Source of the DNA: a virus
Strand: one strand, 5' to 3'
Length of the DNA: 5,554 nucleotides
IMG/VR virus record: IMGVR_UViG_3300045988_005313
Coordinates: 1 to 5,554 of that record
The notes beneath the pieces were generated by a model that saw nothing but the letters and a program-made list of their open reading frames with translations, was not told the origin of the DNA and did not search any database. Both the position numbers and the translations under genes were made by a program. This document shows, one piece after another, positions 2,811 to 5,554 of the stretch. The number at the start of each line of letters is the position of its first letter. Positions within the stretch are counted from its first letter, which is position 1.

Positions 2811-3734
2811 ATGGGATGGGAAGCAATCCTTCTGCAAGCACTGCCGACCCTGATAAACGTAGCTGGAAACCTCCTGCAAACCGGAATCAGCAACTTGGGC
2901 AGCGCAAAAAGCAGCCAAACAATGAACAATAGCACCGAAACGAGCAGCAGCACAAGCACCAGCACGAGCGGAAGCATGACAGAAAGCGGTGAAACAACCA
3001 GACAAGGAAGCATCTCAGGAATTGCAGATGCACTAAAAACGGCAATGGGAACACCGACCGGCAACAACAGCCAAACTGCGGGAAACTTCAACGCGATGCA
3101 AACGCAAACCGCAAACAACCTGCAAACCGGACAGTGGACAATGGCAAACATGATGAACATGTTCTCAAATCTGGTAAGCAACGGCCTAGACTATGCAAGC
3201 ATGACCAGCGCAAGGCAGTACAACAGCAAAGAAGCAGCTGTACAACGCGAATGGTCAGAAAGAATGAGCAGCACCGCATACCAACGCGGGGTGAAAGACC
3301 TACAAGCGGCAGGGCTTAACCCGGTACTAGCAGCATACAACGGTTTCGGGGCAAGCAGTCCAAGCGGAGGAACAGCAAGCACCGGTATGCAAAACTTTGC
3401 ACAGACCAGTGCAGCAGCAATACCGTCAGCGCACACCGCAACAATGCAAGCCATGTACGACTACGGCAACAACACAGCCCAGTTTCTGCAAAACGCAATG
3501 CAAGTTATCAGCAACGCGAAAGAAACAAGTCAGTACGGCATGGCACGAAGTATGCAGAACATTGCAAACCAGATCAGCACCAGCAGCGCAAAGACAGTGC
3601 AGAACATAACGCAAGATCAAAGTAGCCAAACATACACGGATAAACTTGCAGGAGTACCAAAGATCGACATACCAAGCGATAAGAAGAAGCAAGGAGGGTT
3701 TACACACGGGGGAGGCGGAGGCCGCGGGAGATAA
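2811..3734 (+). CDS. VP2: Minor capsid / DNA pilot protein VP2 (307 aa).
   Basis: It carries the conserved gokushovirus VP2 block MSSTAYQRGVKDLQAAGLNPVLA (nt 3267..3335). It is Q/N/S/T/A-rich, with a hydrophobic N-terminus. GAGGTG at 2800..2805 lies 5 nt upstream. It sits directly downstream of VP1. Confidence 0.9.
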   Translation: MGWEAILLQALPTLINVAGNLLQTGISNLGSAKSSQTMNNSTETSSSTSTSTSGSMTESGETTRQGSISGIADALKTAMGTPTGNNSQTAGNFNAMQTQTANNLQTGQWTMANMMNMFSNLVSNGLDYASMTSARQYNSKEAAVQREWSERMSSTAYQRGVKDLQAAGLNPVLAAYNGFGASSPSGGTASTGMQNFAQTSAAAIPSAHTATMQAMYDYGNNTAQFLQNAMQVISNAKETSQYGMARSMQNIANQISTSSAKTVQNITQDQSSQTYTDKLAGVPKIDIPSDKKKQGGFTHGGGGGRGR

Positions 3735-3737
3735 GCA

Positions 3738-3766
3738 TTGACAGATGTAGAAAAGAGGTGTATACT
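3738..3766 (+). promoter_or_regulatory. Near-consensus sigma70-type promoter: TTGACA (3738..3743), 17-nt spacer, TATACT (3761..3766).
   Basis: Read directly. The -35 box is perfect, the spacing is optimal at 17 nt, and the -10 box matches 5 of 6. It lies in the 75-nt gap between the VP2 stop (3734) and ATG 3810. The predicted start near 3773..3775 leaves the RBS AAGGAG (3797..3802) in the leader. Confidence 0.5.
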
Positions 3767-3809
3767 ATGGGTGTATCAATCGTACACTTTAAGCCAAAGG
3801 AGCAGTAAA

Positions 3810-4019
3810 ATGAAAAGCCAAGTGAGCAAGAGAATCAATATAAATCTAACAGACCGCGAGATCGTAGCACTCGAAAGGCTTCAAGACGAAATGACAACAC
3901 GGAACTGGAAGATGAACCAAAGCGACATCATCAGGGAAGCAATCGTATACTACTGCATGAGAGAGACGGGAGCAGTATTTGCAAACGAGTGGAAACCGAA
4001 GGAAAAGGAGCAAAGTTGA
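3810..4019 (+). CDS. 69-aa ribbon-helix-helix protein, CopG/Arc/MetJ-like putative transcriptional repressor.
   Basis: I chose ATG 3810 with AAGGAG 7 nt upstream over the track's TTG 3738 start. The sequence SKRININLTDREIVALERLQDEM-(loop)-NQSDIIREAIVYYCM matches the RHH pattern of CopG (KKRLTITLSESVLENLEKMAREMG-LSKSAMISVALENY): alternating beta-strand, helix A, then helix B starting with an N/S-x-S/D cap. Confidence 0.7.
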   Translation: MKSQVSKRININLTDREIVALERLQDEMTTRNWKMNQSDIIREAIVYYCMRETGAVFANEWKPKEKEQS

Positions 4020-4034
4020 CGCGGTTACACCGCG
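4020..4034 (+). repeat. Short GC-rich hairpin directly after the RHH gene stop (CGCGGT tac ACCGCG).
   Basis: 6-bp perfect stem (4020-4025 / 4029-4034) with a 3-nt loop. No T tail follows, so it is not a canonical intrinsic terminator. Confidence 0.6.
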
Positions 4035-4068
4035 CCAATGGGCAACAATAATCCATGGGAAAAAATGA

Positions 4069-4079
4069 GCGGGAGCTAA
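4069..4079 (+). repeat. 11-nt direct repeat GCGGGAGCTAA, copy 1 (copy 2 at 5379..5389).
   Basis: Exact match read in both intergenic regions flanking VP4. Each copy lies just upstream of a long bulged hairpin with a G5/C5 block. Confidence 0.85.
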
Positions 4080-4089
4080 ATTTTGTGTC

Positions 4090-4129
4090 AGTGGGGGGAA
4101 TAGACATCAAGAGGGTCTATTCCCCCACT
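4090..4129 (+). repeat. Long stem-loop: 15 bp, one bulged G, 9-nt loop ATCAAGAGG.
   Basis: AGT(G)GGGGGAATAGAC pairs with GTCTATTCCCCCACT. I checked the pairing position by position from 4090-4129 in to 4105-4115, with G4093 bulged. Confidence 0.85.
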
Positions 4130-4157
4130 CTCCCCGGGAAGGAGGAAACGTCCATAC

Positions 4158-5306
4158 ATGGCATGTGCAAGGCCGAACATAAGAATTTTTAGCGATACCG
4201 ACAAAGACTATTTTGCACCGCTGGACTGGTACATACAGCACGGCAAAAAAAGAACCGGCAAGCCGGACATGATAGCAACACAGAAAAGGCGCGAGCGCCA
4301 GCTGAAGGAGATGATCAAGACCGGCGAAGCAGTGCTATGCCCGTGCAAACGCTGCAATGGCTGCATCATGGACAGGGGCAAGAGCTGGGCAAACAGAATG
4401 GAGATGGAGCTGCCATACCATGATCAAGCGTGGTTTTTGACGTTGACTTATGATAACGATCACGCGCCAATGAGCTATGATCAGGGACTAGGCATAGACG
4501 AGCTGACCGGCGAGGTAGTAACGGAAAACTTAACGCTTGACTATACGGACCTAGAAAAATTCTGGAAAAGGCTCAGACGCTGGACAGAGTACAACGATAA
4601 AGCAATCTACATAGACTACAACGGCAAGAAAAAAAATGATCTGATGTATTACGCTGGCGGCGAATACGGAGGAAAAACACACAGACCGCACTACCATGCA
4701 ATAGTATACGGCTTAAAAATTGAAAAAGAGGAGCTGAAAGAGTACAAGAGGGCAAAAGGCAAAGTATACTATACCTGCGAATGGCTCACGAAGCTATGGG
4801 GCAAAGGCTTTGTAATCATCGGTGCAGCGGAATGGCAGAGCATGGCATACACCGCAAGATACTGCACCAAAAAAAGCTATGGAGCAGGTGCAAAGGAATA
4901 TTACAAGAATCTGGCGATACAACCGGAAGATAGCAGAATGTCAACCAATCCGGCAATCGGATGGAGGTACTACGAAGAACATAAAGAGGAAATCTATAAA
5001 AACGACAAAATCCAACTCAAGAAAGGAAGGAGCTGTAAACCGCCTACATACTTCGACAAGCTCTTTGATCTGGAGCACTCAGAAGCCGAACCGCTGACGG
5101 AAGAAGAGTGCAAAGGCATTGAGGATGTAATAATAAAAGCCGAATCCGAAGAACTGAAAGAAATCAAGCGAAAAAGGCGAAAACTTGCCAATGACGCACT
5201 GTTTAATCAGCTCAAACAGACCGGCCTAACTATGCAAGAGTATTATAAACTAAAAGACCAACGGAATCAAGAAAAATTTAAACAGCTGATCAGAACCGAG
5301 GTATAG
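4158..5306 (+). CDS. VP4: Rolling-circle replication initiator VP4 (HUH endonuclease, phiX174 gpA family), 382 aa.
   Basis: Motif I is FLTLTY (nt 4434..4451). Motif II, the HUH motif, is RPHYHAIVY (HYH at 4689..4697). Motif III is the two-tyrosine YTARYCTKK (4848..4874), comparable to phiX gpA YVAKYVNKK. A Cys cluster CPCKRCNGC lies at 4338..4364. AAGGAGG is at 4139..4145. Confidence 0.95.
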   Translation: MACARPNIRIFSDTDKDYFAPLDWYIQHGKKRTGKPDMIATQKRRERQLKEMIKTGEAVLCPCKRCNGCIMDRGKSWANRMEMELPYHDQAWFLTLTYDNDHAPMSYDQGLGIDELTGEVVTENLTLDYTDLEKFWKRLRRWTEYNDKAIYIDYNGKKKNDLMYYAGGEYGGKTHRPHYHAIVYGLKIEKEELKEYKRAKGKVYYTCEWLTKLWGKGFVIIGAAEWQSMAYTARYCTKKSYGAGAKEYYKNLAIQPEDSRMSTNPAIGWRYYEEHKEEIYKNDKIQLKKGRSCKPPTYFDKLFDLEHSEAEPLTEEECKGIEDVIIKAESEELKEIKRKRRKLANDALFNQLKQTGLTMQEYYKLKDQRNQEKFKQLIRTEV

Positions 5307-5379
5307 CCAGATAGCTGCAAACCAGTCAAGGGCAAGTGAACGCGCTTCGCGCGCCCTTGACTAGTCCGCAGCCATCCGG
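5307..5379. repeat. 73-nt composite imperfect palindrome starting at the first base after the VP4 stop codon.
   Basis: The outer arms are 5307-5318 / 5368-5379 (10 of 12 pairs). The perfect 10-bp core is AGTCAAGGGC (5324-5333) / GCCCTTGACT (5353-5362). The apical GCGC ttc GCGC mini-hairpin is at 5342-5352. Confidence 0.85.
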
Positions 5380-5389
5380 CGGGAGCTAA
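5379..5389 (+). repeat. 11-nt direct repeat GCGGGAGCTAA, copy 2 (copy 1 at 4069..4079).
   Basis: Exact match. It overlaps the last base of the palindrome and lies 2 nt upstream of the hairpin at 5392..5423. Confidence 0.85.
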
Positions 5390-5391
5390 TC

Positions 5392-5430
5392 AAGGGGGTT
5401 CACCACAAAGTGGTGACCCCCTTCTTTATT
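5392..5430 (+). terminator. Strong stem-loop (14 bp, one bulged T, loop AAA) followed by CTTCTTTATT. Possible first terminator after VP4, or an ssDNA structural signal.
   Basis: AAGGGGG(T)TCACCAC aaa GTGGTGACCCCCTT was paired position by position (5392-5423). The downstream tail is only partly T-rich. Confidence 0.4.
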
Positions 5431-5440
5431 ATGAGAACGC

Positions 5441-5471
5441 ACAAGGGAAGCCCTTGTTTTTTTTTTTTTTT
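5441..5471 (+). terminator. Rho-independent terminator: ACAAGGG aag CCCTTGT stem followed by a T15 run.
   Basis: 7-bp stem (5441-5447 / 5451-5457) with a 3-nt loop, running straight into 15 consecutive T (5457..5471, equal to 2..16 in copy 1). It lies downstream of the last gene of the single-strand gene array. Confidence 0.75.
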
Positions 5472-5502
5472 GGTAAAATGTAGAAAAAAGGAGGTGAGAT
5501 TA

Positions 5503-5554
5503 ATGAGCTACCGAAAAAGCGTAAATCCCAAGACGGACAAGAAGGTCTTTACCA
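5503..5554 (+). CDS. Second, truncated copy of the small basic protein gene (the same locus as 48..167 on the circle).
   Basis: It lies inside the 99-nt terminal redundancy. ATG 5503 equals 48 + 5455. The window end cuts it off. Confidence 0.6.
   Translation, partial: MSYRKSVNPKTDKKVFT

Follow-up and report, generated by a model that had tools for sequence, protein, structure and literature searches.

A conserved CTTGAT-loop hairpin beside rep as a candidate inverted rolling-circle origin in gokushovirus-like microviruses

The genome IMGVR_UViG_3300045988_005313 is that of a gokushovirus-like microvirus, and the locus considered here is the 138-nucleotide (nt) spacer (4020-4157) between a small RHH-like open reading frame (ORF) and the replication gene rep (VP4), within which a stable hairpin lies at 4090-4129. 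The question that it raises is what this hairpin does for the phage. Positions refer to the window, i.e., the whole 5,554-nt stretch analyzed, in + strand coordinates. An earlier note, made from the letters alone, had offered origin, Rep recognition or packaging functions for the spacer, or control of rep, and had stressed a sequence repeated downstream of the gene. The spacer does hold a structured, functional cis element, and a Rep recognition site or origin is the best supported of those options. The hairpin and its flank at 4083-4090 are probably the site at which Rep nicks and joins DNA, that is, the rolling-circle origin, inverted relative to the genes. By sequence comparison, the element is best described as an inverted copy of a cis element common to most gokushovirus-like microviruses, which has a 12-18 bp stem, the loop YYTCTTGAT, and GACAC 17-18 nt past the G^A step. 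We found no described gokushovirus origin, and no description of this CTTGAT-loop hairpin, in the searchable literature.

In + coordinates the hairpin comprises a 5' arm (4090-4105), a loop (4106-4114, ATCAAGAGG), and a 3' arm (4115-4129), and it is preceded by the octamer TTGTGTCA (4083-4090). The element is read on the - strand, where the loop is CCTCTTGAT and the flank TGACACAA, giving the order stem-CCTCTTGAT-stem-GACAC in the segment 5'-GAATAGACCCTCTTGATGTCTATTC-3'. Its DNA fold is -13.1 kcal/mol on either strand (z ~ -3.3). The 15-bp hairpin with a bulged G and no T tail that had been described here is present and does lack a T tail, but the bulge is not a feature of the element: the extra G is peculiar to the window, because the window has one C fewer, and close relatives that are 93-99% identical (L001, L002, L042, L043, and L051) have a perfect G6/C6 stem.

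Conservation was assessed in the 160 nt upstream of rep in a clade sample of 41 IMG/VR contigs and two GenBank genomes besides the window, with Rep proteins 49-99% identical. The covariance model R1, built from 13 sequences, matched exactly once per genome, and on the same strand, in all 56 clade genomes, 44 of 44 in this sample plus 12 more. The TTGTGTCA octamer is invariant in all 38 distinct clade sequences, and the loop TCAAGA is invariant across the clade; the arms vary between subgroups yet stay complementary. In the stem, 95.3% of cells are paired and 14 of the 18 pairs changed on both sides, a result reached by none of 500 shuffles, and in slid controls pairing collapses to 33-52%. The pair counts come from a model-guided alignment, in which structure fitting inflates pairing somewhat; it replaced a plain MAFFT alignment of the spacers, which misplaced gaps around the loop. 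Tabulation by hand shows the same arm swaps (GTGGGGGGAATAGAC, GTGGGCCCCAATAAC, CCTAGCCCCAATAAC, and GTAAGCCCCTATAAC), with the closing pair alternating between C-G and G-C. The covariation analysis that the earlier note had proposed as a check is thus strongly positive for this hairpin. One-sided changes of the G-U type are absent from the 17 inner pairs, and the lack of such intermediates fits a DNA palindrome that pairs on both strands and would be unusual for an RNA structure. A dif/XerCD-like site was ruled out, as the palindrome arms covary freely, unlike those of a site for a host protein, and a search of 185,579 species genomes gave no prophage relatives. A pattern scan of viral contigs with TTGTGTCA-N13-19-TCAAGA, which specifies 14 bases, gave listed matches that were almost all due to chance, and protein-anchored sampling was used instead.

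The complementary strand carries the motifs that point to an origin. Opposite + ATCAAG (4106-4111), the - strand reads CTTGAT, a putative Rep nick motif, and the predicted cut, CTTG^AT, would fall between the bases opposite + positions 4108 and 4107. The phiX174 record annotates its rep_origin at 4306, in CAACTTG^ATATTAATAACACTATAGACCAC (reads CAACTTG^ATATT), and the same nick core is found on the window's - strand opposite 4111-4106. The phiX174 origin has a three-part organization with a 3' recognition ('key') block. Its GACCAC lies 17 nt past the nick; in the window the corresponding block is GACAC, part of the invariant flank that reads TGACAC on the - strand, which is opposite 4089-4085 and starts 18 nt 3' of the predicted nick. 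GACAC lies 17-20 nt past the nick in 165 distinct elements. The window has only one site with this two-part architecture of loop CTTGAT and GACAC. The gokushovirus hairpin was defined by a stem of at least 8-10 bp, a loop with CTTG[A/T], GAYAS 14-20 nt 3' of the nick, and a single copy, and the window's hairpin has all of these.

Comparison with known origins places the element closest to that of phiX174 and shows where it departs from it. The phiX174 (Bullavirinae) viral-strand origin shares the CTTG^AT core, GAC(C)AC 17-18 nt 3' of the nick, and a position next to rep, in a phage of the same virus family with a homologous HUH initiator that has the two-tyrosine motif (AYTARYCTKK in the window's Rep). 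In contrast, the phiX174 spacer is AT-rich and unstructured, whereas that of the window is the 3' arm of a covarying hairpin with the nick motif in its loop; and the phiX174 origin lies inside gene A, whereas the window's element is intergenic and on the strand complementary to the genes. The coding-strand sense of the phiX174 motif is not found in the window and 137 other genomes, in which the motif is complementary to all genes. The element appears to be a homologue of the phiX174 origin whose spacer is folded into a stem, so that the loop presents CTTGAT, an arrangement also known from CRESS-DNA virus origins and several plasmid origins. The likeness to the double-strand origin (dso) of plasmids of the pC194/pUB110 type (Rep_1) is in the nick motif, CTTGATA being the conserved nick of the pC194-type dso (PMC10378824); Rep family and replicon type differ. 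The stem-loop origins of CRESS-DNA viruses (geminiviruses, circoviruses, and nanoviruses) likewise have a covarying stem, an invariant nick motif in the loop, iteron-like repeats, and an adjacent rep. They differ in their nonanucleotide, TAATATTAC rather than CTTGAT, and in their Rep lineage, and the host here is bacterial; the window's loop (ATCAAGAGG, or CCTCTTGAT when read on the - strand) contains nothing like TAATATTAC.

The same element is found well beyond the window's clade (clade A). An R1 match in a genome whose Rep is only ~33% identical to that of the window led to a second clade, clade B, from which 80 genomes were retrieved. In clade B, GGTGTCA-stem-TATCAAGTAAG-stem stands immediately after the rep stop codon, and its loop reads TTACTTGATA on the - strand; because of this position, the element is not tied to the 5' untranslated region (UTR) of rep. 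Ordinary gokushoviruses, about 60 genomes that are nearly all T-rich, carry it on the coding strand. The Chlamydia phage Chp2 (NC_002194) has it as CTAGCGTATAACAG-TCTACTTGAT-CTGTTATACGCTAG-GTGATAGC (position 2922), where VP3 and ORF8/rep are separated by a gap. Among 12 GenBank genomes sampled at regular intervals along the ranking by Rep similarity, six have a coding-strand element and a seventh has only a short stem of 7-8 bp. Coding-strand elements are also present in L207 and in about 50 of 69 IMG/VR relatives of MG945674, which served as the control clade in place of L207, whose search gave three genomes only. The named carriers are Chp2, KT264759, MG945864, PQ007014, PP511666, MG945674, PQ007232, and L207. 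Most of these elements are intergenic and precede rep; their stems covary richly, and their flank is GTGACACC. They share architecture, loop, flank, and spacing with the window's element, and the differences are the orientation, which is the opposite one in clades A and B and in L351, L353, and L370, and the flank sequence, TGACACAAAAT rather than TGACACCA. The reekeekee- and roodoodooviruses have conserved intergenic hairpins between Cap and Rep, which by description have an identical loop and compensatory stem changes and lie ahead of rep; their function was left open, and negative-strand initiation was tentatively suggested (PMC9865509). On CTTGAT in microviruses, or on negative-sense or ambisense microviruses, the searchable literature gave nothing relevant beyond that study and PMC10378824.

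Two observations on individual genomes belong here. In L213, L319, L341, L364, L369, and L207, GACAC is repeated beside the hairpin, either directly (GACACCATGACAC) or inverted (GACAC...GTGTC), in an arrangement resembling iterons for Rep binding, as far as the sequence goes. A 10.9-kb contig, L206 (IMGVR_UViG_3300045988_007630), has two rep genes, one of clade B (A-rich, with an inverted element) and the other 94% identical to that of the T-rich L207; because of these two unlike rep genes, the contig looks chimeric or concatenated from two microviruses of opposite orientation.

The orientation of the element follows the composition of the genome. At 4-fold degenerate sites of the coding strand, the window has T 0.09 and A 0.38, and clade B has T 0.12-0.14 and A ~0.50, compared with T 0.59 and A 0.09 in phiX174 and T 0.50-0.65 in Chp2, SpV4, and L207; the complement of the window (T 0.38, A 0.09) mirrors the viral strand of phiX174. 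Orientation and 4-fold composition separate without exception in the 203 genomes with a detected element, a sample that is uneven, with most contigs from one IMG/VR dataset, and a detection rule that was written after the element had been seen. Only genomes with 4-fold T of at most 0.15 have the element on the non-coding strand (138 genomes in three A-rich, T-poor groups, namely 56 of the window's clade, 79 of clade B, and L351, L353, and L370). A second, coding-strand match in three of the 79 clade B genomes is probably due to chance. Only genomes with 4-fold T of at least 0.29 have it on the coding strand (65 genomes, 60 of them with matches on one strand only and five with an extra chance match on the other). 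L351, L353, and L370 were met inside the control sample and recognized as A-rich before their element was located. Neighbour-joining trees, built for VP1 and for Rep, join clades A and B as sisters and have the L351 group branch beside the large ordinary clade, which implies at least two independent changes of orientation.

The strand asymmetry is current and of the predicted sign. The single-stranded viral strand of single-stranded DNA phages accumulates C>T changes (PMC4032129). Within each of nine groups of close relatives, singleton differences were counted in VP1 and rep, with the majority base as the ancestral state; these counts, over all sites and third positions, replaced a rare-allele spectrum at strict 4-fold sites, where sites were few and saturated. 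On the coding strand, C>T exceeds G>A per site in the ordinary clades, with an odds ratio (OR) of 2.25 over all sites (p = 1.7e-6) and 6.4 at third positions (p = 4e-15). The inverted clades show the reverse (OR 0.67, p = 3e-5 over all sites; OR 0.63, p = 4.5e-4 at third positions). All three ordinary subgroups and five of the six inverted ones show the pattern of their kind. A third compositional type, seen in L298, L366, L368, and phiMH2K (NC_002643), is marked at the 4-fold sites of the coding strand by much A and, above all, by little G (A 0.42-0.47, G 0.07-0.11, T 0.23-0.32).

If the hairpin is the origin, replication may proceed along the lines known for rolling-circle replicons. The palindrome would extrude from the supercoiled replicative form and expose CTTGAT single-stranded in the loop. 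GACAC would position Rep (VP4), presumed to be the enzyme that acts on the hairpin, which would cut CTTG^AT and remain on the 5' end, and the 3' OH would prime displacement synthesis. After one round, Rep would cut the regenerated site and circularize the displaced strand. All genes of the window lie opposite the strand that carries the motif. Rep would therefore displace, and the capsid presumably receive, a strand antisense to the mRNAs, in contrast to phiX174 and the ordinary gokushoviruses. The wider proposal is that the window's phage and at least two further lineages (138 genomes) are negative-sense microviruses with an inverted origin, in which the antisense strand is displaced and packaged, that orientation flipped at least twice with composition following, and that the CTTGAT-loop hairpin is the gokushovirus origin. 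Taken as a whole, we regard this proposal as evenly poised.

The element offers a precise and widely conserved origin candidate for gokushoviruses, a hairpin with loop CTTG^AT and GACAC 17-18 nt downstream. To our knowledge, the Microviridae have been taken as uniformly positive-sense. Element orientation, synonymous composition, and recent C>T asymmetry agree in suggesting the opposite polarity in some abundant gut lineages. If this is true, the orientation of a palindromic element of ~60 bp would determine strand polarity, which would be an evolvable trait. The deposited orientation of a microvirus genome would not always be that of the virion strand, strand-specific virome methods may need adjusting, and models of mutational bias in single-stranded DNA viruses would have to allow for antisense packaging. 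Origin orientation could also be used as a variable in the design of synthetic microvirus replicons.

Several points weigh against this reading. Cleavage by VP4, the exact cut, cruciform extrusion, and the packaged strand are steps that we infer. Seven copies of CTTGAT, a short motif, occur in the window's T-rich complement; the origin case rests on the invariant loop position and the GACAC spacing. The element is not universal, as it was undetected in SpV4, phiMH2K, and about 16 other sampled genomes. The coding strands of L298 (MH572342), L366, and L368 are A-rich (A 0.42-0.45, T 0.28-0.32), yet their elements have the ordinary orientation. The neighbour-joining trees are unbootstrapped, and one inverted subgroup (A3) opposes the C>T versus G>A trend, as another (A2) does for T>C versus A>G. 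Substitution asymmetry and equilibrium composition are not independent of each other, and the data are metagenomic assemblies. An inverted origin would also send rolling-circle synthesis head-on against transcription. Finally, a conserved hairpin on the viral strand could instead be a complementary-strand origin.

That last alternative, in which the hairpin is a single-strand origin (sso) folded on the packaged single-stranded DNA, where host RNA polymerase or primase primes the second strand as at G4 oric, M13 ori(-), or a plasmid sso, seems to us unlikely. It would account for the stability of the DNA hairpin, the conservation of its loop and flank, and its place in non-coding DNA, the Cap-Rep hairpins of other microviruses have been tentatively discussed in such terms (PMC9865509), and the fact that these origins work in one orientation only fits the link between orientation and composition. 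However, loop and flank are kept across very different hosts (Chlamydia phage Chp2, gut, and environmental lineages), suggesting recognition by a conserved phage protein rather than by host machinery. Coincidence would have to explain the double match to the phiX174 viral-strand origin, in which both CTTG^AT and GAC(C)AC recur with the same spacing. No ssoA-like signature (RSB, CS-6 TAGCGT) or primase start triplet was noticed on reading the sequence, although no systematic test was made. The inferred polarity would stand even if the hairpin were such an origin, because such origins work only on the displaced strand. It is considerably less probable that the hairpin acts in the 5' UTR of the rep mRNA, as an operator, processing site, stabilizer, or antisense-RNA target that controls Rep dose. 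Its position suits such a role: rep starts 28 nt further 3', the Shine-Dalgarno sequence (AAGGAGG, 4139-4145) follows after ~10 nt, and the region is presumably transcribed from the promoter at 3738-3766. Against it stand the position of the clade B element after the rep stop codon, the opposite orientation to transcription in ordinary gokushoviruses with the same DNA loop sequence, the lack of G-U intermediates in the inner pairs, and the lack of an Rfam match. The only small ORF that overlaps the hairpin has an unconserved ATG. The translational or antisense control of rep that had been suggested for the spacer is accordingly unlikely.

That the hairpin terminates or attenuates transcription between the RHH-like gene and rep has hardly anything to recommend it. 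The stem is GC-rich and lies between two genes, but no T/U run follows it (CTCTCCCCGG is the + strand tail and GACACAAAAT the - strand tail) and it is absent from the terminator scan list; an invariant loop and flank would be unexpected, and the position varies between clades. Another explanation takes its cue from the claim that an 11-mer and a bulged G5/C5 hairpin are repeated as a unit on both sides of rep: they could form a functional pair bracketing the gene, as initiation and termination sites of Rep or as the ends of a mobile rep cassette. We consider this improbable. The 11-mer, GCGGGAGCTAA, is indeed exact at 4069-4079 and at 5379-5389, both on the + strand, and an exact 11-mer common to the two non-coding stretches has P ~0.005 in 200,000 shuffles, in agreement with the chance of about 0.01 or lower that had been estimated. 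The downstream copy runs into TCAAG, and its - strand, CCCCCTTGAT, resembles the context of the origin loop, CCCTCTTGAT. On the other side, the 11-mer is variable in relatives that are 93-99% identical, two relatives (L044 and L045) are without the entire downstream module, the downstream hairpin gives no match to R1, the bulge is confined to the window, and a general local alignment of the two regions contains the 11-mer only, with P = 0.02. None of the parts of the supposed repeat unit is conserved beyond the nearest relatives.

The details of the repeat point the same way. The whole genome has 34 repeated 11-mer pairs, and VP2 ends, stop codon included, in a one-mismatch copy, GCGGGAGATAA (3724-3734). 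In L042 the upstream copy is ACGAGAGCTAA and in L043 it is ACGGGAGCTAA; the downstream copy is GCGGGAGCCAA in L008/L051. Apart from the window, the downstream copy is present only in L008/L051, L042, and L043; L044 and L045, whose Rep is 94% identical, keep the upstream 11-mer and have an unrelated region after rep. The presence of the upstream copy is partly explained, because its last four bases, CTAA, lie inside the conserved flank CTAAATTTTGTGTCA, which is common to other inverted groups, and its CTAAATTTT part is common to the L029, L072, and L370 groups. A search for gapped homology between the two non-coding regions found nothing significant beyond the 11-mer itself. The downstream 11-mer abuts TCAAG (to 5394), and the - strand there reads CCCCCTTGATTAGCTCCCGC, a second CTTGAT with a 5' context like that of the origin loop; it has no GACAC block and no loop position, and R1 gives no match. 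The stretch at 5379-5394 may be a relic of an origin-associated rearrangement, a pseudo-origin, or a recombination scar, and it is dispensable in close relatives. Because it is variable or lost in relatives and the downstream hairpin does not fit the model, the 11-mer repeat itself is best read as chance or at most a shallow relic.

The hairpin with one bulged base that had been placed just 3' of the second 11-mer is present at 5392-5423 (+ strand), with a bulged T and followed by CTTCTTTATT. Its DNA fold is -13.7 kcal/mol (z = -6.0), and it is kept in the nearest relatives only. It is not homologous to the upstream hairpin, and the idea that it repeats that hairpin is contradicted by the covariance model, which matches once per genome in the window's clade and never 3' of rep. 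Conservation in close relatives, on which the proposed repeat had been made to depend, thus fails for the paired 11-mers and the downstream hairpin. The latter is probably part of the terminator region after rep, which also includes a long imperfect hairpin (5306-5380) and, after 5392-5423, a canonical terminator found in the terminator scan (5441-5457, then T15). In most clade A genomes the region after rep is occupied by a GC-rich two-hairpin module, GGACGGCGTAG...CTACGCCGTCC TTTTCATT CGGCGCACCAGCGCCG ACCGGACGGCC, with its first arm repeated after the second hairpin, at ~40-130 nt past the rep stop in L046-L050, the L009 group, L023, L024, and L067; the window has a different module there. 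Termination, complementary-strand initiation, or the two together are possible roles of this clade A module.

Neither the 11-mer repeat nor the bulge nor the hairpin 3' of rep belongs to the origin element. The spacer upstream of rep has further features. The 6-bp GC hairpin that had been reported directly 3' of the RHH-like stop codon is present as placed (4020-4034, + strand, CGCGGT-TAC-ACCGCG), with a DNA fold of -8.1 kcal/mol (z = -2.9). It is lineage-specific, being kept in the nearest relatives, and other subgroups have analogous but different GC hairpins. The weak promoter candidate GTTACA-17-AATAAT was also recovered by the promoter scan, with 9 of 12 matches. The box AACAATAATCCAT (4044-4056, assigned to no strand) is specific to clade A and kept in most of its genomes; the sequence 5' of it is wholly different between genomes, and the box marks the sharp 5' edge of the conserved origin-rep module in the window's clade. 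A leader peptide (ORF 4055-4192) was rejected, since its ATG is not kept (ATA or absent in relatives). Rfam 15 has no family at or above the gathering threshold at 4020-4157; sub-threshold hits occur elsewhere in the window only, and one to a miRNA family at 5306-5380 merely reflects the long hairpin there.

The window is a circular genome of 5455 nt with a terminal redundancy of 99 nt (positions 1-99 equal 5456-5554), and its nearest GenBank records are two pig-faeces genomes, MG945373 and MT135351. All genes are on the + strand: an ORF5-like protein (336-587), a scaffold protein of the Chp2 type (580-1071), VP1 (1077-2798; Pfam Phage_F), VP2 (2811-3734), the small RHH-like ORF (3810-4019), and rep (VP4), which encodes an HUH rolling-circle initiator (4158-5306; Pfam PF23343 REP_ORF2-G2P, E = 1.2e-14). 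A near-consensus promoter, TTGACA-17-TATACT (3738-3766, + strand), precedes the RHH-like ORF. The TGA stop of this ORF is followed by 20 in-frame sense codons, up to a TAA within the upstream 11-mer (4017-4079). GGTGTAT occurs twice (3756-3762 and 3771-3777), just 3' of the promoter, and ATGTAGAAAA[A/G]AGG occurs at 3745-3758 and again at 23-36; either repeat could be an operator for the RHH-like protein. In related genomes, TTGACAAGTGTAT...AGGTGTATAATAAAGGTGTAGAAAGG occurs 3' of rep in place of the window's repeats. Right after the T15 run of the terminator, TGGTAAAAT at 16-24 (= 5471-5479) looks, from its sequence, like an extended -10 promoter for the late-gene block, and the junction TTTTTGGTAAAAT is common to many relatives.

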